A DNA stretch of 31,598 bases from a virus (IMGVR_UViG_3300017774_006457:1-31598), one strand, 5' to 3'. Shown: positions 2,127-24,027, numbered from the stretch's first letter. Numbers and translations: made by a program. Notes: a model not told the origin generated them from the sequence alone.

Positions 2127-3761
2127 TTAACAAGTTCCAAAATCAATAGTTTGAGTATCTTCTAGAACCATAAAAAATTGACCATCGCAAGTTAACGTAT
2201 TAGAAATAGTACATTGGGCACCTAAATCTATACAATATTGTTCACCATTTGGACCAATCCCATTCATCCCGCAATTTTTTAACTTGGCATAGACACCTGT
2301 ATATGACACAACATAACAATCGCTTGGTGGACATCTTTTGTCTGGATTATCTTTTTTAAATGATCTGCAACCACTGCGAGAACAACAATTCCGATCAGTG
2401 CATCTAACGCTTTTTTCTGCAGAACTACAATCTGCACAACAATTATTCACGGGTCCGCAACTTATGGTTGGAGTTGGGGTTGGACTTGGAGTATTTTTCG
2501 CACATGTTCCACAGCTACATGTTATATATCTACCAGGATCTTTTGGACAACTTTTTTCAGATCGAGCACATGTGCATGTTTTATTAGGGTCATTTGACTC
2601 TTGTTCATCTGCCCAACTTTCGCAGCTCGACGGGTCTTGAAAACAATTTCCAGTCATCTCACTACACTCACATGCGCTTGGCGTTGGAGTCGCACATAAT
2701 TCACAATGTATAAGTCTAGCTTCGTCACCAGGGCATTCAAAGTCACCAGCATCTGCTACTTGTTCTCCGACCTGACATCTTGCTACCCAACCAGGTCCTG
2801 CAGCATAAGCACAGTCGCAGTATGTTACTGTAAAAGTCCATGTTACTGGAGGATTAGAGCAATAGCATTCTTCTAGTGCTCCGTTTTGACCACAATTAGG
2901 ATGAAATTTATCACAAGGATCACATGTATAACCCTTTTTGTCTTTGTTTGCAATTTTGCAGTCGTTAAGTGTTCGGTATCCATTTCCATTTCCACATTCT
3001 TTTGGCTCATGCACACATTCTTCACAACGTACAATTGGGCAAAATCCTCCCCCTGTGCAAGTTCTAGATTCGCATTTAACACAAAAATCATCTTTACTTT
3101 TTACGCAATTCCAATTACATTGTCCTATTTCATATAAATCTCCTCCGCATCTCTTATCTTTACAATCTTGTGGGCATGTGTTAGTAGGAGTAGGAGTAGG
3201 AGGGGGAGTTGGTCCAATATTAACATCATAGCAATTAGGATTATCTTCTCCATTAGGACATGTACAACTAACGTTTTTACACCAACAATTCAAATAATCT
3301 GGACAACCACCTGAATTTATCCATTTGTCGCAACTTTCGTAAGAACTAAATTGAGCTCCGCAATGAAGCAAGCATTTACATGGCTGTGTTCCTGTAGGAG
3401 TTGGAGTTTTTTTAGGTTCACATGTTCCGCACTGTATATCAGGACAATCTTTTGGACATTTTTTTGTTTTTTGACCAACGCAATCTTCATCTGCCCAACA
3501 ATATGCGCAATTAGTTCCAGTATCACAGTCACAAAAATCTTTGCATGGAGGTGTGCCAGTCCTACAATTCCAACAAGTTCTAGTTTCACAATCCTTTCCA
3601 GAGCAGTCTTCTTTAACACAAATCATTTGAGGGTCATCAAAATAATACAAACCACAATCTCCACAAGCGCATGGAGGCTTAGTAGTCGGCGTAGGATCTT
3701 CTGTATATTCTAAAATTTCAGATATTATTCTTAATAATTCATTATTACGAGATTCGTCCAT
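2127..3761 (-). CDS. Extremely Cys-rich protein with Pro/Thr linkers, possibly virion surface protein
   Basis: 544 aa with dense Cys modules separated by PTPTPT linkers; GTGTAA motif upstream. Confidence 0.75.
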   Translation of the reverse strand: MDESRNNELLRIISEILEYTEDPTPTTKPPCACGDCGLYYFDDPQMICVKEDCSGKDCETRTCWNCRTGTPPCKDFCDCDTGTNCAYCWADEDCVGQKTKKCPKDCPDIQCGTCEPKKTPTPTGTQPCKCLLHCGAQFSSYESCDKWINSGGCPDYLNCWCKNVSCTCPNGEDNPNCYDVNIGPTPPPTPTPTNTCPQDCKDKRCGGDLYEIGQCNWNCVKSKDDFCVKCESRTCTGGGFCPIVRCEECVHEPKECGNGNGYRTLNDCKIANKDKKGYTCDPCDKFHPNCGQNGALEECYCSNPPVTWTFTVTYCDCAYAAGPGWVARCQVGEQVADAGDFECPGDEARLIHCELCATPTPSACECSEMTGNCFQDPSSCESWADEQESNDPNKTCTCARSEKSCPKDPGRYITCSCGTCAKNTPSPTPTPTISCGPVNNCCADCSSAEKSVRCTDRNCCSRSGCRSFKKDNPDKRCPPSDCYVVSYTGVYAKLKNCGMNGIGPNGEQYCIDLGAQCTISNTLTCDGQFFMVLEDTQTIDFGTC

Positions 3762-5830: not shown

Positions 5831-6219
5831 GGGCCCGTACTGGTTTCGATTTTAGAGATCGGAATTAAAATGCAAGTGGAGGTTGAATCGAGGACTCCTT
5901 AAAAAGTTTCAATTTATATTAACTGCCAAAACAGCAAAATATAAAGGTCATATTTCAGCAAGAGTTTCTCTTGTCGAGATGACTGAATCTGTAGCCTAAG
6001 TTCTACAGCGTGACTACCTTGACACATCTATTGGATAGTTGCGTAATTAGATGTTTGAGCATAGGAAGTTTTTTTATTCTTTTTATATTCAATATTCAAA
6101 ATAAAATCGCTGAGTATGTTTGTTTTTTATCTATACAAGGCTAAAAACAAAAAGAACTAAACTTGTAGTATTTCAATTTAGATTTTTAAAAGACAGAGGT
6201 TCAATTCCTCTCGGGTCCA
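5831..6219 (+). ncRNA. ssrA: tmRNA
   Basis: 5' GGGCCCG pairs with 3' CGGGTCC-A including G3-U Ala determinant; 5' CTGGTTTCGA; T-arm AGAGG-TTCAATT-CCTCT; tag ORF 5925-5999; CCA not encoded. Confidence 0.93.
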
Positions 6220-6285
6220 AGTAAACGAATCCCTGTGTCTGCATTTTTATTAGATAATACTATAAAATCCACATATAATGCTTAT

Positions 6286-6837
6286 ATGAAGATAAGAAAA
6301 ACAAAAATAACTTGTGCTCAATGTGGCAATGAACACGAAATAAGGCAAAGCGATTATAATAGAAAAATAAAATCTGGACAAACTAAATTTTATTGTAGTT
6401 TGAAATGTTCTGGAAAAGCTGACTATAAAAATAACCCAATTAAACTAGAAAGAAATAAAGGCAATATTAATTTATTAAAAGGTTACGAAGCTAATAGATT
6501 AGATGAATATAGCCCATTTAAATATTCATTAAATAAAGCTAGATCAAGGAGCAAAGAAAAGGGACAAGAGACAGATTTAACTCTTGAATATTTAAAGCAA
6601 CTTTTAGAAAAACAAAACGGTTTATGTTCATATACAAGTATAGTTTTAGAATTACCTAGAAGCTCTCAAGATGAAGATATAAAGAAAAGTCCAACTAAAT
6701 TAAGTCTTGATAGAATTGACCCAAATATAGGATACATACAAGGAAATGTTGAATTCGTATGTTATTGCGTTAATGTTATGAAAAATGACTTTTCTAAACA
6801 AGAAATGGTAGATTTTATTAAAAAAATTAGAAATTAA
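6286..6837 (+). CDS. HNH/EndoVII-like endonuclease with N-terminal zinc finger (free-standing homing endonuclease-like)
   Basis: CAQCG...FYCSLKC finger; QNGLCSYT...SLDRIDPNIGYIQGNVEFVCYCVNVMK nuclease motif; ATG 6286 preferred to GTG 6235. Confidence 0.8.
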   Translation: MKIRKTKITCAQCGNEHEIRQSDYNRKIKSGQTKFYCSLKCSGKADYKNNPIKLERNKGNINLLKGYEANRLDEYSPFKYSLNKARSRSKEKGQETDLTLEYLKQLLEKQNGLCSYTSIVLELPRSSQDEDIKKSPTKLSLDRIDPNIGYIQGNVEFVCYCVNVMKNDFSKQEMVDFIKKIRN

Positions 6838-15653: not shown

Positions 15654-15681
15654 ATAGATAATTACACATTAATATATGATA

Positions 15682-17379
15682 TTATTCTACTAAAGTGGGT
15701 AGCACTGTTGTTTCTTCAGTAACTATAATTGACTTATTATTAAAAGTCACATTTTTAAATTTATTTCTAAATTTTTGTTGGAATTTAATAAATTTTTTAA
15801 GATTTTTATTTAAAAATAAAACGTTTGGTAAATTATTCTTTAATATATTTGAAATTTTAGAGTACAAAAGAAATTTAGCGTTTTGTTGTGCTTTTTGTAT
15901 AGCTTTTTCTTTATTAACATCTTCACCTCTGCCTAATACTCCTAGTAAATTTCCTTGATATACTTGAACTTTTAAATCATTTATATTATTAAAAGTTTTG
16001 TTGAAGTTAAAAGCTGAAATAGTTTCATTTATTTTTGAATCTATAGGGTCGTAATTTCCATATCCAGAATAAACTACATATAGCATATGATCTGTACCAG
16101 CAATTTTATTAAATAAAGGATTTATTAATTCTATTGAAAAAGGCGTACCGCTAGGTATAATTCCATTCCATGTCCCTGTATTAAATTTTTTTGAAGCAGA
16201 ATATAATCCACTATACATTTGATAAAAAGCAGTCCCACTAATTGGCGTATTTTGTTTTAAATGTCCGTCAGCATCTATTCTATAGGGGTGATACCAATTT
16301 TTAGGATAAAAAGTTCCAGTATCATTAGTTGTATAACCCGAATAATTATATATGTCAAAAGCTGAAGCGTCTTTTCCAGATTCAAAAAAACGTATACCTG
16401 AAGGAAATGTTGCTTCAATATTTTCAGAGCTAGGGAAAATTGCTTTAACTGCTATCCCACTTGTAATTTTTTCATTTATAGTCTTTGGTGTTTGATAAAT
16501 AAAATTTTTCTGTCTTGTTACGGTATATTGCTTAGACCCATGTACTAAAGTATTACATAGTCCAGTTTCAGCTTTATGAGGAGAAATATAACATATTCTT
16601 TCATTTTGTCCAATTCCAGTTGAAATTAAAATTATACCTTTAAAATCTTGTTCGCCAGTATTAAGATTTTTTGTAAAACATGTTATTTTAGTCGGAACAT
16701 TATAAGCATTAAAATTATTTGTTATAACGGTTGTTGGATAAGTTAAATAAAAATTATTCAATAATGTAGTTGTCGATTCTCCAGGCAATCGATTTTCTTT
16801 CCAATTAACAAAATTTGTATTTGACATTGAATTTTTACCACTAAAAACGTTTGTTAAATTAATTGTTTTAGAAATAGAAATTTGACCAGTTTTATCAAAA
16901 CTAAATCCACTTAATATATTTTGATTTTTTATGCCACTTTCAAAAGAAAATCTAGCGTAAGGAAAAGATTCATTTGTACCTTTAAATTTTAAAATTTCTA
17001 AATTTTTGTTTGAAAAATCTATGAATTGATTAAAATAATTTTCATTGTTAATTAATTTATTATCTACTTTAGACAGATCACAAAAAGATAATTGCCCAAA
17101 AAGAGGAATTCTTTTTTGCACTTGAGCATTAAAGATAACGGAATCTGGTACTAATTTAAAATTTTTAGTTACAGTTAATTCAGTGCTTGTTGTTTCTGCT
17201 GAGATAAGATTAACAACTGCTTTTTTACTTTTAAGAGAGCCTTCAGATACTATATCTAATTTAAACTTTTTAACTTCATTGCTCGTAGATTCTACATTAT
17301 CTACAATAGAATTGCTTGCAGCTATATTTGCAGCTGGCAGACCTAGTAATTGTAAATCTTCTTCGTTTATTAAACTCAT
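15682..17379 (-). CDS. Ribozyme-associated hypothetical protein, paralogue A1
   Basis: 565 aa; shares GQLSF, ICYISPH, YSGLY...FNTGTWNGIIPSG with 21574-23091. Confidence 0.85.
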   Translation of the reverse strand: MSLINEEDLQLLGLPAANIAASNSIVDNVESTSNEVKKFKLDIVSEGSLKSKKAVVNLISAETTSTELTVTKNFKLVPDSVIFNAQVQKRIPLFGQLSFCDLSKVDNKLINNENYFNQFIDFSNKNLEILKFKGTNESFPYARFSFESGIKNQNILSGFSFDKTGQISISKTINLTNVFSGKNSMSNTNFVNWKENRLPGESTTTLLNNFYLTYPTTVITNNFNAYNVPTKITCFTKNLNTGEQDFKGIILISTGIGQNERICYISPHKAETGLCNTLVHGSKQYTVTRQKNFIYQTPKTINEKITSGIAVKAIFPSSENIEATFPSGIRFFESGKDASAFDIYNYSGYTTNDTGTFYPKNWYHPYRIDADGHLKQNTPISGTAFYQMYSGLYSASKKFNTGTWNGIIPSGTPFSIELINPLFNKIAGTDHMLYVVYSGYGNYDPIDSKINETISAFNFNKTFNNINDLKVQVYQGNLLGVLGRGEDVNKEKAIQKAQQNAKFLLYSKISNILKNNLPNVLFLNKNLKKFIKFQQKFRNKFKNVTFNNKSIIVTEETTVLPTLVE

Positions 17380-17383
17380 GATT

Positions 17384-17448
17384 AACCAAATATTCTAGCA
17401 TCGTAAACCTCTTGTACTGTGGTTTTTTATCTAGCCCAGAATTTTCAT
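17384..17448 (-). ncRNA. Predicted 65-nt circularised exon of ribozyme copy 1
   Basis: Lies between omega-G (17449) and UGGUU site complementary to IGS GACCG; ends pair (AUUCUGG/CUAGAAU). Confidence 0.55.
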
Positions 17449-17700
17449 CATTTTGTTATCGTTAAATTGTTTATATTTAACATCTTTATATTTCTATAAA
17501 GTTCAGACTATATCTTCTTTTATTTCTAAAAGTTTGGGCGCTCTTGGACAATTTTATTGTTGGTACTCAATCGTCTAGTCGTTACACCTTACAGCCTATC
17601 TTTCCCAGCTGTCTTGGCTCGGTATTGTCTTCCATTTTTTAATGGTTAAGATTTCCACCGAATTCACCCAATAACGGTCATTTAAATTTTAAAAAGAACT
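17449..17700 (-). ncRNA. Group I intron ribozyme core (IA-like) lacking an upstream exon, copy 1
   Basis: P3 UUGGGUG/CGCCCAA, P4 UUCGGU/ACCGAG, AAGGUGUAACGACUA, GAAGAUAUAGUC (P7 GACUA/UAGUC), GNRA-capped P8 and P9, ends AACAAAAUG. Confidence 0.9.
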
Positions 17701-17708
17701 AATCTTTA

Positions 17709-17734
17709 TTACACTTAATTTTTTTTATGTGTAA
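17709..17734. promoter_or_regulatory. Back-to-back GTGTAA promoter motifs
   Basis: TTACAC 17709-17714 (minus, ribozyme) and GTGTAA 17729-17734 (plus, 8 nt before ATG). Confidence 0.65.
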
Positions 17735-17742
17735 CATAATTT

Positions 17743-18300
17743 ATGCCTAACTTATTACCTTTTAGAGACTACAGCGAGCATGAAGTCATTAATTTATATT
17801 CTTGTAATACAGTTGCAACAAAGGGAAGTTTGGTAAAGCTAATTACGCCTGTTGGTAAAAATGTTTTAAATCTTTCAGATATAAGTGTAGGAAATAAATT
17901 CCCTAATACAATAAATAATAATTTTGATATAATTGGCCAAGTAGAAATTGTAACAGCTTATAATGATGTGCCTAGTGCTCTAGGATTACTGCTTTATGAT
18001 GTTCGTGAAACTGATGAAAATGGAGAGCGTCTAATTTTTAATCCAAGAAAAATGGCAGAAATAAATGCTGTTTTACCAATAATTCATGCTGTACCAATTC
18101 TAACAAGAGGTATAGTCTCAATTAATGATATTGATGAAACTGCTCGATTAGGTGGAGCTGGTGGAGCTCCACAACTTGGTGCAGCTGCTTATGTAGGAAA
18201 TAATGGAAGAATTGCTGTAAATGGTATAATTAAAATAGGTAAATTTTTAAGCACAAAAGATTCTAATGGATATTGTTTAATGAAAGTGAATTTTGATTAA
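17743..18300 (+). CDS. Hypothetical protein, paralogue B1 (possible capsid decoration/cement protein)
   Basis: 185 aa, highly similar to 23473-24027; beta-rich; structural role is inferred only. Confidence 0.7.
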   Translation: MPNLLPFRDYSEHEVINLYSCNTVATKGSLVKLITPVGKNVLNLSDISVGNKFPNTINNNFDIIGQVEIVTAYNDVPSALGLLLYDVRETDENGERLIFNPRKMAEINAVLPIIHAVPILTRGIVSINDIDETARLGGAGGAPQLGAAAYVGNNGRIAVNGIIKIGKFLSTKDSNGYCLMKVNFD

Positions 18301-19034
18301 TGAGCATTTGTTGTAAAAGATCTACTGGTTGGAGCGCTACAAGAAGTGTTCAAAGCTTATATGTTGCAATCACTTCTATATCTGCAAAAACTAGTCTTAA
18401 AACAAAATGCGTAAGTAATACTTTACCCGAACATTCTTGGATAACAAATCCACCAAAAACAATTTGTAGTCGAGCTTTTATAAGTACTCATGAACAATCT
18501 TGGTCTGGAGATAGCATTGGCTCTGATTTAATAGATGGATTTATTGTTACTCCTTCTTTTAATTATTCTTATCTTTTAGATGCTTCAACTGGATCTTGGA
18601 CAAATTCATCACCATATTCAATATCAGCTGGAGGATGTTTGAATACAAGTGAAATTACTAATATACAAGTTGTATCTGATAATACAGAATGTTTAAACAA
18701 CAACGGACCAGAATGCTCAAGAACTTTATTTTCTAAAACAGATAATTTTAAAGTAAAGGGTTGGAGTTTAAATGATTATAAAGAAGTGACAAATGGATAT
18801 GAAGTATATTCTTATTTAATAGATATTCAACTTACTTGGGAAGCAAGAGTTAGAGTTTTTGAAACAAAATTAAGTTTATCTAATACAAACCATGATTGTT
18901 GCCCAGATCAAGGAGACAATTTAAGTTATGCTTCTTCGCCTAACACAGATGATACCGCTAATTTAGATTCAATTGTTAATTCTATAAGAACTATGCCGTA
19001 TTTTATGATAGCTCTTATGGCTAATAAAAAATAA
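18300..19034 (+). CDS. Ser/Thr/Cys-rich hypothetical protein
   Basis: 244-aa ORF coupled via TAATG. Confidence 0.7.
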   Translation: MSICCKRSTGWSATRSVQSLYVAITSISAKTSLKTKCVSNTLPEHSWITNPPKTICSRAFISTHEQSWSGDSIGSDLIDGFIVTPSFNYSYLLDASTGSWTNSSPYSISAGGCLNTSEITNIQVVSDNTECLNNNGPECSRTLFSKTDNFKVKGWSLNDYKEVTNGYEVYSYLIDIQLTWEARVRVFETKLSLSNTNHDCCPDQGDNLSYASSPNTDDTANLDSIVNSIRTMPYFMIALMANKK

Positions 19035-19044
19035 AAATCAAATT

Positions 19045-21060
19045 ATGGCAAGGTACGCGCCTCCTAATTTTTCTTACCCACCATATCCATTACCACCCGA
19101 TGAGGGAAGTGGGGTTATTAAACTCATTCCATGCTCATCTGTAGCATGTTCTTTACCACCTAAAAACTGTTATGCATTTGGTTTAATCCCCTACAGAGAA
19201 TGCTATCAAGATGGAAAATGCAAATATTGGTATGAAAATTCTTTTAAAGAACCTATTTGGACAGGTGGAGAAGCAAGCATTTTATGGGAAGATGATCCAA
19301 AAATTGGTGCTTGGATATATAAGATGTCTTTTTCAAGTAATTTTCGTGGTATCAAAGAAAAAACATTAAAACCAGATCCAAATTTTCCTAGTATTGTAAC
19401 TTTTGTATGTAATCAACTCAAAAAAGTTGAAGTTAATAGCACTTGTAAATTCGACCTATATCACAAAAGTTTACCTGTAGTCTATTGGGCTAATAAAAAT
19501 GTGGGAACAACTCCTCCTGAAATGGCAGGAATTATTAATAAATATGGAGGTGCTTTTCTAACAGCAGATAGGCCATACCAACTGTCTTCCATCGACCCGC
19601 GCTATCCTGCCGCTATTAAGATAAGATTATATTCTGATGTTAAAAATTTAACCCCTTACCCTCCTCCCCCACCACCTCCGCCTCCACCACCTCCGCCACC
19701 TCCACCACCTCCACCTCCAGTTGCTTGTTCTAATTTTTACTTATCAAATGTTAGTTGGACAAATGTTGATAATTGGGAAACGGTAACAGGTATAAAATTT
19801 GATAGATCGAAAGGGTTTAGATATATGGGTATTCAAAGATGCCCAAACCGTATAATAGGAGTTGATCCAATTTCTTTCTGCGCGGGTGGCAAAGTAGATC
19901 CTAGTTTTCCATGGCTTCTCGGATGGGTTAAAATGTTGCATTGGTTGGATTCTGATGGAGTTTTACATTACATAAAACCTCGTGAAAATGTTGCTTTAGT
20001 AAACTATGGAGGAGAAAATTCTATAATAAAAAAGTATACTGGAATTGGTACAATAGCACCTTCTAAAGAAGGAATAATGGCAATGTGTAAAAAATATAAA
20101 ATAAAATTTATAGGATCTATATTTAATGAATACTACTGCCGTCAAACAAATGAACAAGTTTTTACGGGAACTATTCAAGAAATTCAAAATGTTGTTGTTC
20201 CACCCCAACCTCCTCCACCTCCTCCCCCGCCTCCACCGCCACCAACTTCGGTTTTTTGTGACTATCCTTTCTTACAATTTGTTAATTGGGCTGGAAAACT
20301 TTCTAATGATGATTTTAGAGACTTAACAGGTAGAGTTTTAAGATCTGCATACGATAGTCCAGGTTTTGCAAATTGTCCCAATTTTATTACGAGGAGTAAA
20401 CTAACTGGACTGTGTCCTGCTCGCCAAATAAGTAATAAATTTCCATGGCTTATTGGATGGGTTAGATATTTACATTGGAGAGATTGGACTTCAAACTTTC
20501 ACGAAGAAAAAACTATTAAACCTATTGCTATAATATATAATGATAACATAAAAAAAGCATTAGGCGATGAAGCTGATGTTTTTTATAAAGATATTAAAAC
20601 ACCTTCTCAAAACGAAATAGAAACAATGTGTAGAGATCTTGGTATAGAATATGTAGGATTTGTGGGTCTTCCAGAAACTTGTACCGCAACTAGACAAAAA
20701 GTATTTTCAGCAGGTATCATACGAATTAAAGTGAATCTAATACCGCCTTGTTGTTTTTGCTCTTCCCCTCCGCCTCTGTCATCTCCACTCCTAATTCCGC
20801 CTACACAAACATCACGAATTTTAAAAACAAGCTATTGCGGAACTCTTGGGTATATAACATACCATCCAAGAGGATTTTTAAATAAACAATATCCAGAAAT
20901 AATTGGTTATGCCATGTGTAGTGGAATGAGAAATGAGTGTCCAATTGTAGAAACTATTGGAGATGCTGCTAAGTTAGCAGGTATTTTTAATTGTGCGTGG
21001 ACTGTATATGGTAAGGAATCAGGAACTCCAACCCTAAGCCTCATTGCTCGTAGTGGATAA
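19045..21060 (+). CDS. Poly-proline-linked multidomain protein with internal domain duplication
   Basis: Two long poly-Pro tracts, each followed by a domain with CPN...C...FPWL(L/I)GWVxxLHW. Confidence 0.8.
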   Translation: MARYAPPNFSYPPYPLPPDEGSGVIKLIPCSSVACSLPPKNCYAFGLIPYRECYQDGKCKYWYENSFKEPIWTGGEASILWEDDPKIGAWIYKMSFSSNFRGIKEKTLKPDPNFPSIVTFVCNQLKKVEVNSTCKFDLYHKSLPVVYWANKNVGTTPPEMAGIINKYGGAFLTADRPYQLSSIDPRYPAAIKIRLYSDVKNLTPYPPPPPPPPPPPPPPPPPPPPVACSNFYLSNVSWTNVDNWETVTGIKFDRSKGFRYMGIQRCPNRIIGVDPISFCAGGKVDPSFPWLLGWVKMLHWLDSDGVLHYIKPRENVALVNYGGENSIIKKYTGIGTIAPSKEGIMAMCKKYKIKFIGSIFNEYYCRQTNEQVFTGTIQEIQNVVVPPQPPPPPPPPPPPPTSVFCDYPFLQFVNWAGKLSNDDFRDLTGRVLRSAYDSPGFANCPNFITRSKLTGLCPARQISNKFPWLIGWVRYLHWRDWTSNFHEEKTIKPIAIIYNDNIKKALGDEADVFYKDIKTPSQNEIETMCRDLGIEYVGFVGLPETCTATRQKVFSAGIIRIKVNLIPPCCFCSSPPPLSSPLLIPPTQTSRILKTSYCGTLGYITYHPRGFLNKQYPEIIGYAMCSGMRNECPIVETIGDAAKLAGIFNCAWTVYGKESGTPTLSLIARSG

Positions 21061-21087
21061 AATCTATTACAGTTTTAAATGATTAAA

Positions 21088-21570
21088 TTATATACATCTC
21101 AAGCGGACTGTCACTATTTTAGGACCCCCACTACCTGGAGTATTCTTTTGTTCGTTACTTAGTGGAGAAAGAGCGCAACCATGCAAAGGTTTGCAGCATG
21201 TTGCACCAGACGTGTTTTTAAGACTATATTCTACCTCTTTTGGTCCAGATATAGGAATTGTAGAACCCACTAGATTTCCATCGTTAGCTGATTTACCACA
21301 TGCTGCACATCCATCATTGACTACCTTTGAGTATTCGTAATATTCTAGCTCAATTTTCTTCTTTTCTTCTACACTTACATTGCATTTACAATTTTCAGGA
21401 GGACATGTATCATTCCCAAAAGGACCAGTTGATGTATTTCCAGTAGAAATATATTCAGTGACACTTTTAACAGGTGTATATTCGGCCTGGCATAGCATAT
21501 AGGTAGAACATGAAGGCGTAGGAGTAGGGGTAGAGGTAGGGGTAGAGGTAGGGGTAGGGGTAGTAGGCAT
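21088..21570 (-). CDS. Pro/Thr-repeat, Cys-rich small protein
   Basis: MPTTPTPTSTPTSTPTPTP N-terminus; 3 nt after the paralogue A2 stop with AGGAG. Confidence 0.7.
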   Translation of the reverse strand: MPTTPTPTSTPTSTPTPTPSCSTYMLCQAEYTPVKSVTEYISTGNTSTGPFGNDTCPPENCKCNVSVEEKKKIELEYYEYSKVVNDGCAACGKSANDGNLVGSTIPISGPKEVEYSLKNTSGATCCKPLHGCALSPLSNEQKNTPGSGGPKIVTVRLRCI

Positions 21571-21573
21571 AAA

Positions 21574-23091
21574 TTAACTCCTTGTTAAGAATTTTTTCAA
21601 TTTTCTAAATTTACGATTTTCATATATAATTTCTGGAATATGTGTTTTTATAATACTACTAATTTTATTTAATATATTATATCTAAAATTTATTTTACTT
21701 TTAATAAGAGCTGAATCAATATCTTCGCTATATGCTCTTCCTGTAGATTTAATAGAACAATCGTAATCTACTAAAACTTTTGTATCTAAAACTTGGGCTT
21801 TTTTATTAATTTCACTAGGAATTATATTCGCGCCGTATGTATATAAACAATTAAATATTTTTTTATCTAATGCGTCTTCTGAAGAATATCCTGTATATAA
21901 AACAGATAAAGTATTATTCACTCCATACTCTTTGCCTCTTCCTAAATCGAATCCAATTATTTCAATAGAAAAATTTACTCCAGAAGGTATAATCCCATTC
22001 CAAGTTCCTGTATTAAAAGTTTTATTTGCGTTATAAAGGCCACTATACAATTTATAAAAATATGTATCTTTTATAGGAGTAGTTTGTTTTAATTCAGAAT
22101 TAGATAAAACTTTATGTAAAGAAGCATCGTCCAATCCATTTTTAGATTCATCAAATTGTATGCCTGTCCATTTTATTTTTTGAGATAAGTATTCTGATCC
22201 TAATTTTAAAGTAGGTAATATAATACCGCTGGGAATTCTCCTATATTGAACAATATTAGAATTAACAAATTTTTGAGTTCCAGTATCAAGATATTTTCCA
22301 GTGAATGGTTGAGCTTTATATACAACTGTATTAGTAAAGCCAGTGGTATAATCATGAGGAGAAATATAACATATTTTTGAATTTACTCCGTTGCCAGTGC
22401 TAATAACTAGTAATCCATCTATTTCTTCTATTCCACTAAAAGTATCGTATGAAGGATTAATTTTTGTAGGAATATTTAATTTATTAAATTGATTTGCAAA
22501 TAATGTATTTGGATATGGTAAATAGTAATTGCCTGTTTTTAAAAAGTTTTTATTAACAGAGGCAATTTTTTCTCCTGTTAAAATATTTTCATGAATAAAA
22601 GTTTTTTGAGAATAGACTCCTTTAAAAGAATTTGAATAACCATTTAAAGTATTTGAATTTGATATACCAGAATTATATGTAAAACGGCTAAAAGAAAGGT
22701 CTTTATCTACACCAGGAATAGAATATAAATCTTTATTTAAATGAAAAGGTTTAAAATAATCATTATTTTCTGGAGAATATGAATATTTATCAGATTTAAA
22801 AAAACTTATCTGACCAAGGAATGGAACTTGAGAATTGTATTCTGAATAATAAAAAGGGTTTTCAGATCCTAATTTAAAAGATTGGTAATTAAAATTATTT
22901 GTTCTTTGCCCTCTTTCTAAAGTTTTTGTTGTAATAAGTGGCTTTGGATTTCTTAATGTGCCAATATTAAAAATATCTAATTTTGAATTTTTTAAATAAG
23001 GGTGAGTAATAGGATTCTGATCAGTAAATTGTATTTCTGAGTCAGATATAATTTGACCAGCTAATCCTAATTTTCGAAAAGATTCTTTCAT
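21574..23091 (-). CDS. Ribozyme-associated hypothetical protein, paralogue A2
   Basis: 505 aa; paralogue of 15682-17379. Confidence 0.85.
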   Translation of the reverse strand: MKESFRKLGLAGQIISDSEIQFTDQNPITHPYLKNSKLDIFNIGTLRNPKPLITTKTLERGQRTNNFNYQSFKLGSENPFYYSEYNSQVPFLGQISFFKSDKYSYSPENNDYFKPFHLNKDLYSIPGVDKDLSFSRFTYNSGISNSNTLNGYSNSFKGVYSQKTFIHENILTGEKIASVNKNFLKTGNYYLPYPNTLFANQFNKLNIPTKINPSYDTFSGIEEIDGLLVISTGNGVNSKICYISPHDYTTGFTNTVVYKAQPFTGKYLDTGTQKFVNSNIVQYRRIPSGIILPTLKLGSEYLSQKIKWTGIQFDESKNGLDDASLHKVLSNSELKQTTPIKDTYFYKLYSGLYNANKTFNTGTWNGIIPSGVNFSIEIIGFDLGRGKEYGVNNTLSVLYTGYSSEDALDKKIFNCLYTYGANIIPSEINKKAQVLDTKVLVDYDCSIKSTGRAYSEDIDSALIKSKINFRYNILNKISSIIKTHIPEIIYENRKFRKLKKFLTRS

Positions 23092-23096
23092 AGTTA

Positions 23097-23158
23097 ATCC
23101 AGTTAGCTCCTCAACAACCTCTGACCTTTTAAGAGATTTTACGTGATTAGCTTACTAA
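23097..23158 (-). ncRNA. Predicted 62-nt circularised exon of ribozyme copy 2
   Basis: Lies between omega-G (23159) and UGGAU site complementary to IGS GUCCA; internal AAUCUCU/AGAGGUU stem; ends pair. Confidence 0.55.
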
Positions 23159-23393
23159 CATTTTGTTAACGCTAAAAAGTTTACTTTTAGCATCTTTACA
23201 TCGCTGTAAAGTTCAGACTATATCTTCCTGCTTTCGCAAGTTTGGGCGCTCATGGGCAATATTATTGTTGGGACTCAATCGCCTAGTCGTTACACCTTAC
23301 AACCTATCTTTCCCAGTTGTCTTGGCTCGGTATTGTCTACTTGAGATTTCCACCGAATTCACCCAAAATGGACTATTTAAATTTAAATGAACT
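23159..23393 (-). ncRNA. Group I intron ribozyme core (IA-like) lacking an upstream exon, copy 2
   Basis: Same core as copy 1 with compensatory changes in P6a, P7.1, P8, P9, P9.1; ends AACAAAAUG. Confidence 0.9.
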
Positions 23394-23401
23394 AAACATC
23401 T

Positions 23402-23461
23402 TTACACATTTTTTAAAAAAAAAGCTTTTTTATTTTTACTTTTTTTTATTTTTTTGTGTAA
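23402..23461. promoter_or_regulatory. Back-to-back GTGTAA promoter motifs separated by A/T tracts
   Basis: TTACAC 23402-23407 and GTGTAA 23456-23461. Confidence 0.65.
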
Positions 23462-23472
23462 TATATTTTGCT

Positions 23473-24027
23473 ATGCCAAATTTAATGCCATTTAGAAATT
23501 ATAGCGAATATGATATTATTAATTTATTTGCATGTTCAGTAGAAGCGACAAAAGGGACATTAGTAAAACCAATACAAAAATTAGAAAAAAATCCTTTAAA
23601 CTTATCTCAAAATGCTCCTGGAGCAATATATTCAAACGCAGTAAATAATTTATTTGAATTGACTGGACAAGTAGAACCTATAGCAAATTATAATGATGTA
23701 CCAACTGCTTTAGGAATTTTATTGTACGACGTAAGAGAAAAAGATGAAAATGGTGAAAAATTAATTTTAAATCCAAGAAAAGCGGCAGAAATGAATGTAG
23801 TACTACCTAAAATACATGCTGCGCCAGTATTAACTAAAGGAATAGTGCTTATAAATGATATAGATGTATCTAATCATGGATCTGGCGGTGGAAATCCATC
23901 TATAGGCGATGCCGCCTATGTAGGTGATGCGGGAAAAATTGCTACAGACGGATTAGTTAAGATTGGAAAATTTTTAAGCCCTATTGATAGTAATGGTTAC
24001 GCTTTAGTAAAAGTAGATTTTGATTAA
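23473..24027 (+). CDS. Hypothetical protein, paralogue B2 (184 aa; start corrected)
   Basis: MPNLMPFRNYSEY aligns with MPNLLPFRDYSEH of B1. Confidence 0.8.
   Translation: MPNLMPFRNYSEYDIINLFACSVEATKGTLVKPIQKLEKNPLNLSQNAPGAIYSNAVNNLFELTGQVEPIANYNDVPTALGILLYDVREKDENGEKLILNPRKAAEMNVVLPKIHAAPVLTKGIVLINDIDVSNHGSGGGNPSIGDAAYVGDAGKIATDGLVKIGKFLSPIDSNGYALVKVDFD

Follow-up and report, generated by a model that had tools for sequence, protein, structure and literature searches.

A group I ribozyme with reversed splice-site order before a phage gene family: a predicted route to 5'-end maturation of mRNA

What becomes of a phage gene when the RNA directly before its start codon is a group I ribozyme, and could cleavage by that ribozyme make translation of the gene depend on GTP? 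The question is raised by IMGVR_UViG_3300017774_006457:1-31598, a whole AT-rich viral contig of 31.6 kb (31,598 nucleotides [nt]; 'the window' below) that looks like part of a large freshwater phage. It carries two duplicated cassettes, 5.7 kb apart, each with a divergent gene pair whose starts are about 360-380 nt apart, and each gap holds one group I core on the minus strand. An initial annotation had proposed that cleavage just before the AUG of the two downstream paralogues would give a G-tipped, nearly leaderless mRNA and thereby act as a GTP-dependent translational switch. Our own reading, to which we assign a probability of roughly 0.55, is that a ribozyme with reversed splice-site order cuts 4-5 nt before the AUG, adds GTP and circularizes the spacer, as a constitutive maturation of the 5' end by which the start codon is probably freed, with no sensing of GTP. 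The parts of this reading differ in strength: judged from sequence, the cut with addition of G is very probable and formation of a 62-65-nt circle is likely; dependence of the gene on the cut is slightly favored, and regulation by the GTP level is very doubtful.

Splice-site order in the two ribozyme copies

Copy 1 matches the Rfam family RF00028 (52.6 bits for a gathering score of 50, E 1.3e-12), and copy 2 was assigned as a group I core by alignment with copy 1. P3, P, Q, R, S, the P7.1/P7.2 insert and the terminal G were located in both copies, and the copy-1 core presumably belongs to an IA2-like subgroup. The guanosine-binding site in P7 is retained: GACUA/UAGUC, including the pair that we take to bind G, is invariant in 10 of 10 aligned copies, and the terminal G lies at 17449 and 23159. 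The core lacks P1-P2 on its 5' side; a G that starts the guide stands 14 nt (copy 1) or 13 nt (copy 2) before P4, and the guide is complementary to a site farther downstream (GACC to GGUU, 65 nt behind the terminal G, in copy 1; GUCC to GGAU, 62 nt behind it, in copy 2). The order of the splice sites is thus reversed, with the guide at the 5' end and the U-G target behind the terminal G, and the guide sets both P1, with its U-G wobble, and P10. A conventional intron is not what these elements describe, given that the U-G site follows the terminal G at 62-65 nt, that the core sits between divergent genes and that no exons are joined. The elements of the two copies are as follows.

17708-17714, minus strand: copy 1, GTGTAA promoter-like box, a putative -10 element (the same word lies 8-12 nt before six window gene starts, and upstream of the ribozyme in related phages)
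17692-17700, minus strand: copy 1, boxA-like motif (GNTC(A/T)TT pattern in relatives)
17675-17679, minus strand: copy 1, internal guide sequence with wobble G at 17679 (covariation with the target across 99 loci)
17449-17671, minus strand: copy 1, group I catalytic core P3-P9.1, with P7.1/P7.2 insert and terminal G 17449 (RF00028 and located elements)
17384-17448, minus strand: copy 1, spacer of 65 nt between the 3' and 5' splice sites, the predicted circle; the target ends at 17384 (P10 and P1 pairing)
17380-17383, minus strand: copy 1, leader of 4 nt after the predicted cut (5 nt including the added G), with AUG at 17379 (sequence)
15682-17379, minus strand: downstream gene, paralogue 1, 565 amino acids (aa), no PHROG or Pfam match
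23401-23407, minus strand: copy 2, GTGTAA promoter-like box
23385-23393, minus strand: copy 2, boxA-like motif with one mismatch
23369-23373, minus strand: copy 2, internal guide sequence with wobble G at 23373 (covariation with the target)
23159-23366, minus strand: copy 2, group I catalytic core with terminal G 23159 (alignment with copy 1 and located elements)
23097-23158, minus strand: copy 2, spacer of 62 nt, the predicted circle, containing GAGGAG (23112-23107) 15 nt before the AUG; the target ends at 23097
23092-23096, minus strand: copy 2, leader of 5 nt after the predicted cut (6 nt including the added G), with AUG at 23091 (sequence)
21574-23091, minus strand: downstream gene, paralogue 2, 505 aa, beta-rich structure model (predicted local distance difference test score, pLDDT, 79.9)

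A sigma-70 promoter scan found nothing on the minus strand at either copy. Of the 99 relatives, 40 have the boxA-like GNTC(A/T)TT pattern, in several spellings, at a distance of 8-15 nt upstream of the guide G; the E. coli boxA consensus is given as GNTCTTTAANA (bioRxiv 10.64898/2026.07.09.737519), and through the phage motif host NusB/NusE could be recruited to act in antitermination or folding. We rejected an alternative guide on the 5' side of an AT-rich hairpin, which would have placed both cuts 5 nt before the AUG: in relatives the target covaries with the G 13-14 nt before P4, and the upstream word is the boxA-like motif itself.

Relatives, covariation and the predicted circle

Pattern scans returned 84, 48 and 28 viral loci, 105 metagenome loci and 120 prokaryote-genome loci (27 of 64 parts scanned), and 99 distinct reversed phage ribozymes were curated by hand from the loci found. 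We left out conventional introns, exact and some near duplicates (L198, L233, L243, L269), the window's own contig (L219, L234), loci that were too short (L109, L238, L245, L246, L259, L265 and partial matches) and those with no fixable site (L184, L207, L223, L250, L260, L296). Where a locus held several guide-matching sites the choice was made by homology; automatic picking of the best-scoring site was dropped, as it differed from homology in 15 loci, often landing inside coding sequence. The terminal G was assigned in 85 of the 99 by a distance rule that ignores P10 but was set after examples had been seen.

The first guide/target pair is G-C in 48 loci, C-G in 32, A-U in 15 and U-A in 4, and positions 2 and 3 vary as well. 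Pairing at guide positions 1-3 is built in by the choice of site, so the weight lies in the variety of the pairs and in those pairs that were not used for choosing. Among the latter, the first P10 pair is formed in 81 of the 85 loci for which a terminal G was assigned (mean of the permutations 52.1, a count as high in 0 of 5000 permutations) and, after dereplication, in 60 of 63 (34.9 expected); the second P10 pair is formed in 69 of 85 (43.4 expected), and 89 of 99 loci pair the base that follows the cut, all figures that are not to be read as probabilities because the loci are related. Three loci found through the downstream protein alone (L421, L423 and L430) each have the ribozyme, with a site 13, 4 and 8 nt before the AUG, respectively, and the P10 base paired in all three; L423 and L430 each hold a second guide-matching word. 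Within the window, a GGNT word occurs at most 14 nt upstream in just 1 of the 38 other genes. This rarity, the covariation of guide and target and the fit of all three protein-found loci place the cut sites beyond chance; the sites of the initial annotation, 4 nt (17383) and 5 nt (23096) before the AUG, are correct in their coordinates, as predicted cuts. P10 is reported to serve exon joining (PMC3984707), and because it covaries here the second step, and with it formation of the circle, appears to be under selection; the initial annotation had given this step only passing mention.

The association with the downstream gene is close. The protein family has 72 members with a conserved N-terminal K-L-G-L-like motif, and when 16 loci were approached from the protein, 12 showed the ribozyme; two others stop short of the gene start, but the same contigs carry the ribozyme elsewhere, and the remaining two are distant partial matches with no ribozyme and a promoter-like box of their own. 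Every close orthologue found retains the ribozyme. The protein had no match in PHROGs, Pfam, PDB sequences, ESM Atlas or annotated phages, and the model of paralogue 2 had no Foldseek match at E<=0.001 in PDB or BFVD. None of 108 prokaryote-genome cores looked permuted, as judged by motif filter and by eye in the 27 of 64 parts covered, and annotated phages gave only partial core matches (13 records, at most 42% of the query covered).

The core is nearly invariant, and in the window's clade the spacer conserves its length and a predicted stem only, its sequence being unconserved. The rod predicted for the circle is weak in copy 1 (z score +0.26) and stronger in copy 2 (z -2.4). In 12 of 16 folded circles the predicted stem spans from 1 nt past the terminal G to 3 nt short of the cut; stems at such a position are reported to speed circularization in the engineered trans-ribozyme-based circularization (TRIC) system (PMC12270912). 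Predicted circles range from 13 to 192 nt across relatives and cluster tightly near 60-71 and 73-80 nt, and the spacers of 16 loci matched no Rfam family.

Several relatives differ from the window in ways worth recording. Five loci (L125, L177, L227, L229, L430) have spacers of 140-192 nt with sequence blocks conserved across divergent phages and no Rfam match, and these long spacers may be structured RNA cargo. In a marine clade (for example, L087, L105, L175, L253) the circles, of 73-80 nt, resemble structured rods and share motifs, and the protein that follows is basic, about 125 aa long, and has a QTHG-like motif. A compact subtype lacks P9.1, its terminal G apparently coming directly after P9, and precedes tail-like genes (L096, L128, L132, L173, L189, L216, L228, L241, L248, L252, L254). 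Four copies (L094, L110, L111, L125) share one 147-kb contig and have three guides among them; two combine identical cores with unrelated spacers, pointing to duplication or gene conversion in the recent past. At L270 (minus strand) two reversed ribozymes stand in tandem, their cores about 280 nt apart, and the second ends at a convergent gene. L296 has a terminator-like hairpin and a separate GTGTAA box before the gene, with C in place of U at the homologous cut site; it is possibly a decoupled, decaying copy.

Translation of the downstream gene and the competing readings

The sequence of events that we favor would run as follows. Transcription would start at the GTGTAA box, some 20-25 nt upstream of the guide. 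As sequence and covariation show, the guide at the 5' end has two pairing partners, the GGNU site that lies behind the terminal G, with which it forms P1, and the base that directly follows the terminal G, with which it forms P10. The ribozyme would most likely fold on the nascent late transcript and dock the site behind itself. By established group I chemistry, which also upholds the G addition that the initial annotation expected of step 1, free G or GTP would attack the U-G site and become the 5' end of the downstream mRNA. With GTP as the cofactor this end would be a 5' triphosphate, as at the start of a primary transcript (leaderless translation reportedly needs a 5' phosphate; PMC9031893). 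The freed 3'-OH would then attack the terminal G to give a circle and a free ribozyme. In the weakest step, uncut RNA of this family would be poorly translated (there is no Shine-Dalgarno [SD] sequence, and guide pairing and the spacer stem lie beside the AUG), and the cut product, with an A/U-rich leader of 5-6 nt that resembles some native genes, would make the cut a maturation step on which the gene depends, probably turning a blocked start into a usable one.

The leaders of the window's protein family (23 loci by BLAST clustering plus the three protein-found loci) are consistent with that last step. They are 2-40 nt long (median 7.5; 10 nt or less in 18 of 26, 5 nt or less in 9 of 26) and 82% A+U, and an SD word at -16 to -4 is present in 0 of 23 members, before or after the cut, so that the short, SD-less leader described for the window holds for its gene family. 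The 'leaderless style' attributed to this genome is likewise borne out: a -10-like box lies 4-8 nt before the start in 12 of 40 window genes (background 3.9%) and 9-13 nt before it in four more, an SD-like word occurs in 6 of 40, and among neighbor genes in related phages a -10-like box precedes the start in 25 of 77. The predicted energy for opening the start region is lower after the cut in 21 of 21 comparisons, to which we give little weight because the windows compared are of unequal length. Taken from sequence, it is plausible that the cut helps translation.

Several observations weigh against this reading. Across all 88 loci with a downstream open reading frame (ORF), leaders run from 2 to 140 nt (median 17.5; 5 nt or less in 16 of 88, and none of 0-1 nt), indicating that the cut is not tuned for leaderless mRNA; under a strict definition (AUG within about 1 nt of the 5' end) neither copy, with leaders of 5 and 6 nt including the G, nor the shortest of the 88, at 2 nt before the G, is leaderless. 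In reporters in Caulobacter, a leader of 5-6 nt would give about one-tenth of leaderless initiation (our arithmetic from the published fit, PMC8459731; the phage host may differ). A terminator-like hairpin follows the cut in 7 of 29 loci with long leaders or no gene, and two loci (the second copy at L270, and L293) face the end of a convergent gene with no same-strand gene, so that an mRNA role is not universal. Nearly leaderless output as the purpose of the ribozyme family is not supported, given these leader lengths and the members in which a terminator or no gene follows the cut. Gaps between co-oriented window genes have a median of 3 nt (10 nt or less in 18 of 28), and compaction alone could therefore explain the short spacing from cut to AUG; many internal window genes start without an SD sequence or a promoter, and the uncut RNA might for that reason be translated too. 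The sites, moreover, were curated by hand in related loci, and activity, RNA ends and junctions are all predictions. One further idea, that leader length tracks each phage's use of SD sequences, was rejected: in a marine clade of 31 members the cut leaders have an SD word in 18, though the neighboring genes are SD-poor (2 of 31).

Assembled RNA bears on the same question. Metatranscriptome contigs of four runs cover the copy-2 ribozyme wholly or partly, and a single contig (17437-17663) covers copy 1. Contigs of the coding sequence from two RNA studies end at 23083 and 23081, 13-15 nt inside the predicted 5' end, and a DNA run continues past; these stops near 23096 are a weak hint of a 5' end there, as contigs cannot show ends, strand or level. 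An RNA contig from run X5 (23060-23216, depth 2.6) spans the copy-2 cut and counts on the other side, as uncut precursor or carried-over DNA. Two ribozyme contigs extend 9-14 nt beyond the terminal G. Back-splice or skip joints were found at neither copy in the contigs of the four runs, at depths of 2-15 and in assemblies that drop such forms. At 23321-23365, the same RNA and DNA runs also contain other group I cores, at higher depth, one of them preceded by a boxA-like word and a GGCC guide.

The alternative that survives best, though we still consider it unlikely, holds that selection acts on the circle or the free ribozyme and that the G-tipped mRNA is a by-product, with translation about equal with or without the cut. 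It would account for the conservation of P10, for the tight classes of circle length and for intact ribozymes before a terminator or with no same-strand gene; gene compaction as a null explanation and the SD-less internal starts of this genome also speak for it. Set against it are the unconserved sequence of the circle in the window's clade and the fact that the terminator and gene-less cases all lie outside the window's protein family, whose close orthologues keep the ribozyme throughout.

We regard as improbable the switch itself, in which the rate of cutting would track the GTP pool (or another host signal) and gate translation, with an upstream ORF repressing the uncut form. Growing cells usually contain more GTP than group I ribozymes need for half-maximal rate, although the literature consulted gave no measured value for half-saturation, and without GTP the precursor RNA could not be transcribed at all. 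The window has genes that we take to be purA-like and guaB-like, and the boxA-like motif could tie folding to host Nus factors. Exogenous G is reported as required for step 1 (PMC3984707), and a Clostridioides difficile ribozyme is described as a gate that needs guanosine (PMC9481103). The GTP-dependent switch of the initial annotation is nevertheless not supported: there is no aptamer and no conserved sensing element, no riboswitch family was found in the window (Rfam, E<=1), only about 22 nt of RNA lie 5' of the guide, most of it the boxA-like motif, the peripheral helices are small and ordinary, and the spacer is unconserved. The proposed repressor is the following feature.

17297-17411, minus strand: GAGG (17411-17408), 6 nt, AUG at 17401 and a 34-codon out-of-frame ORF ending at 17297; probably incidental, by a chance test

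This element is present in copy 1 as first described, and the 65-nt circle of copy 1 does translate to the 11-codon peptide given for it; copy 2 has no equivalent ORF, its 62-nt circle lacking an AUG. A role for the ORF was rejected because its frequency is at chance level and copy 2 does without it. Of 19 dereplicated family members, 6 have an overlapping upstream ORF (7.2 expected) and two have one with an SD-like word (0.84 expected; reached in 107 of 500 shuffles), and the close relative L183 has GGGG in place of GAGG. A broader version is a long shot: the ribozyme might re-cap its own mRNA with pppG as a host-state gate (through the GTP pool, or Nus at the boxA-like site) that times when a late gene can be translated, while also yielding stable circles and a free guide-bearing ribozyme able to cut GGNU sites in other RNAs.

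It is quite improbable that the cut lowers expression, by removing a ribosome-binding sequence and leaving a poor leader of 5-6 nt. Such an outcome is described for C. difficile, where a GTP cut 4 nt upstream of the start loses the ribosome binding site (PMC12564702, PMC3984707), short leaders depress initiation in the Caulobacter work cited above, and copy 2 would lose its GAGGAG; but the protein family has no SD word to lose even before the cut, the GAGGAG is distant from the AUG and inside a predicted stem, and no alternative splice site is present for an ON state. A route independent of free G, with hydrolysis at the terminal G followed by attack of that G on the downstream site, so that the ribozyme is fused to the mRNA and a linear spacer is lost, has a precedent in the established pathway of group I introns without exogenous G (the analogue being circularization of the full-length intron; PMC3679873), yet makes no use of the conserved P10 and is barely credible. 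Constitutive 5'-end maturation remains our preferred reading.

The divergent partners in the two cassettes are as follows.

17743-18300, plus strand: gene of 185 aa, part of the duplication that includes the cassette, its start preceded at 8 nt by a GTGTAA box
23473-24027, plus strand: its paralogue of 184 aa

The cassettes are flanked by long proteins, Cys-rich and Pro/Thr-rich, that match no family (2127-3761, 19045-21060, 21088-21570). A phage transfer-messenger RNA (tmRNA) gene at 5831-6220 (plus strand; found by Rfam) is directly followed by an endonuclease-like gene at 6235-6837 (plus strand), and PHROG and Pfam searches found a sigma-factor-like gene; the window presumably also encodes a ribonucleotide reductase. 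Contigs from RNA runs of three studies fuse 15677 to 24027 (weakly, with sides of only 23-31 nt), and because of these joints the 8.3-kb block with both cassettes may be absent or rearranged in relatives.

Comparison with known ribozyme systems

Phage group IA2 introns such as T4 td and Twort have the P, Q, R, S core, the P7.1/P7.2 insert, P9-P9.1 and a terminal G, and the present RNA shares all of these; the introns differ by their location inside genes, by a 5' splice site and a P2 that precede the core, and by the joining of two exons. In the literature consulted, group I introns have the 5' splice site first, and the reversed order is met only as an engineered method for circular RNA. Full-text searches, with subscription papers and supplements largely outside their reach, returned no natural reversed group I ribozyme, only engineered systems. 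New here are the P10 covariation for the circle step, the survey of leader lengths and the negative tests of a switch.

A natural reversal of splice sites is described for circularly permuted group II ribozymes, which likewise make small circles (15-86 nt) and are tied to a neighboring gene; as reported, they use group II chemistry with a branched product, release no free G-tipped mRNA and reside on bacterial chromosomes and plasmids rather than in phages (PMC8637638). The Rfam search found no group II family here, and the core is group I only.

A natural parallel closer than the GIR1 of the initial annotation is C. difficile CD3246, in which a c-di-GMP-II aptamer is joined to a group I ribozyme in the 5' untranslated region and GTP can cut 4 nt before the start codon, with loss of the ribosome binding site (PMC12564702, PMC3984707). 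There, according to these reports, the aptamer picks an upstream site (ON) or the downstream site (ribosome binding site lost, without a second step). The phage RNA differs in having no aptamer, no upstream site and no SD sequence, so that the cut neither makes nor removes a ribosome binding site, and its second step is apparently selected; between the promoter-like box and the guide, neither copy has a guide-complementary GGNU that could be a second site of GTP attack. The phage RNA also opens an old question to test in a molecule of 300 nt: do group I ribozymes ever turn their requirement for guanosine, by itself, to gene control?

GIR1, a lariat-capping ribozyme, is, by the accounts consulted, also a group I-derived RNA 5' of an ORF that removes itself and leaves a protected 5' end; it has no splice sites, a rearranged core and a 2',5' branching reaction that gives a 3-nt lariat, and it serves a homing endonuclease in eukaryotic ribosomal DNA (PMC5393178, PMC3679873). 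The resemblance to GIR1 seen in the initial annotation stands as a functional analogy and not as membership, because GIR1 lacks splice sites and branches, whereas the phage RNA has a standard core, both splice sites (covarying) and the G-binding pair. The window contains no GIR1 family by Rfam, its core matching RF00028, and the setting is not that of a twin ribozyme with a homing endonuclease, the downstream proteins matching no family in PHROG, Pfam or PDB. Should the cut gate translation, it would be a bacterial counterpart of lariat capping by different chemistry. The phage copies would also offer a route, through RNA catalysis, to a bacterial-type mRNA 5' end carrying a non-templated G.

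The nearest match in layout is engineered. In TRIC and the Tetrahymena STS/Rzy system an intact group I ribozyme likewise stands upstream of its target (PMC12270912, PMC10415121), and in TRIC, as described, the guide pairs with the 3' end of the target (P1) and with its start (P10), the product is circular and a stem that joins the splice sites helps (PMC12270912). Unlike these laboratory designs, the phage layout is natural and stands behind a promoter-like box, and the 3' piece that would be released is the mRNA of a gene. As predicted from its pairings, the phage layout is a natural form of the engineered TRIC layout, and about 100 natural phage copies with covarying guides would offer circularizing ribozymes already optimized by nature.
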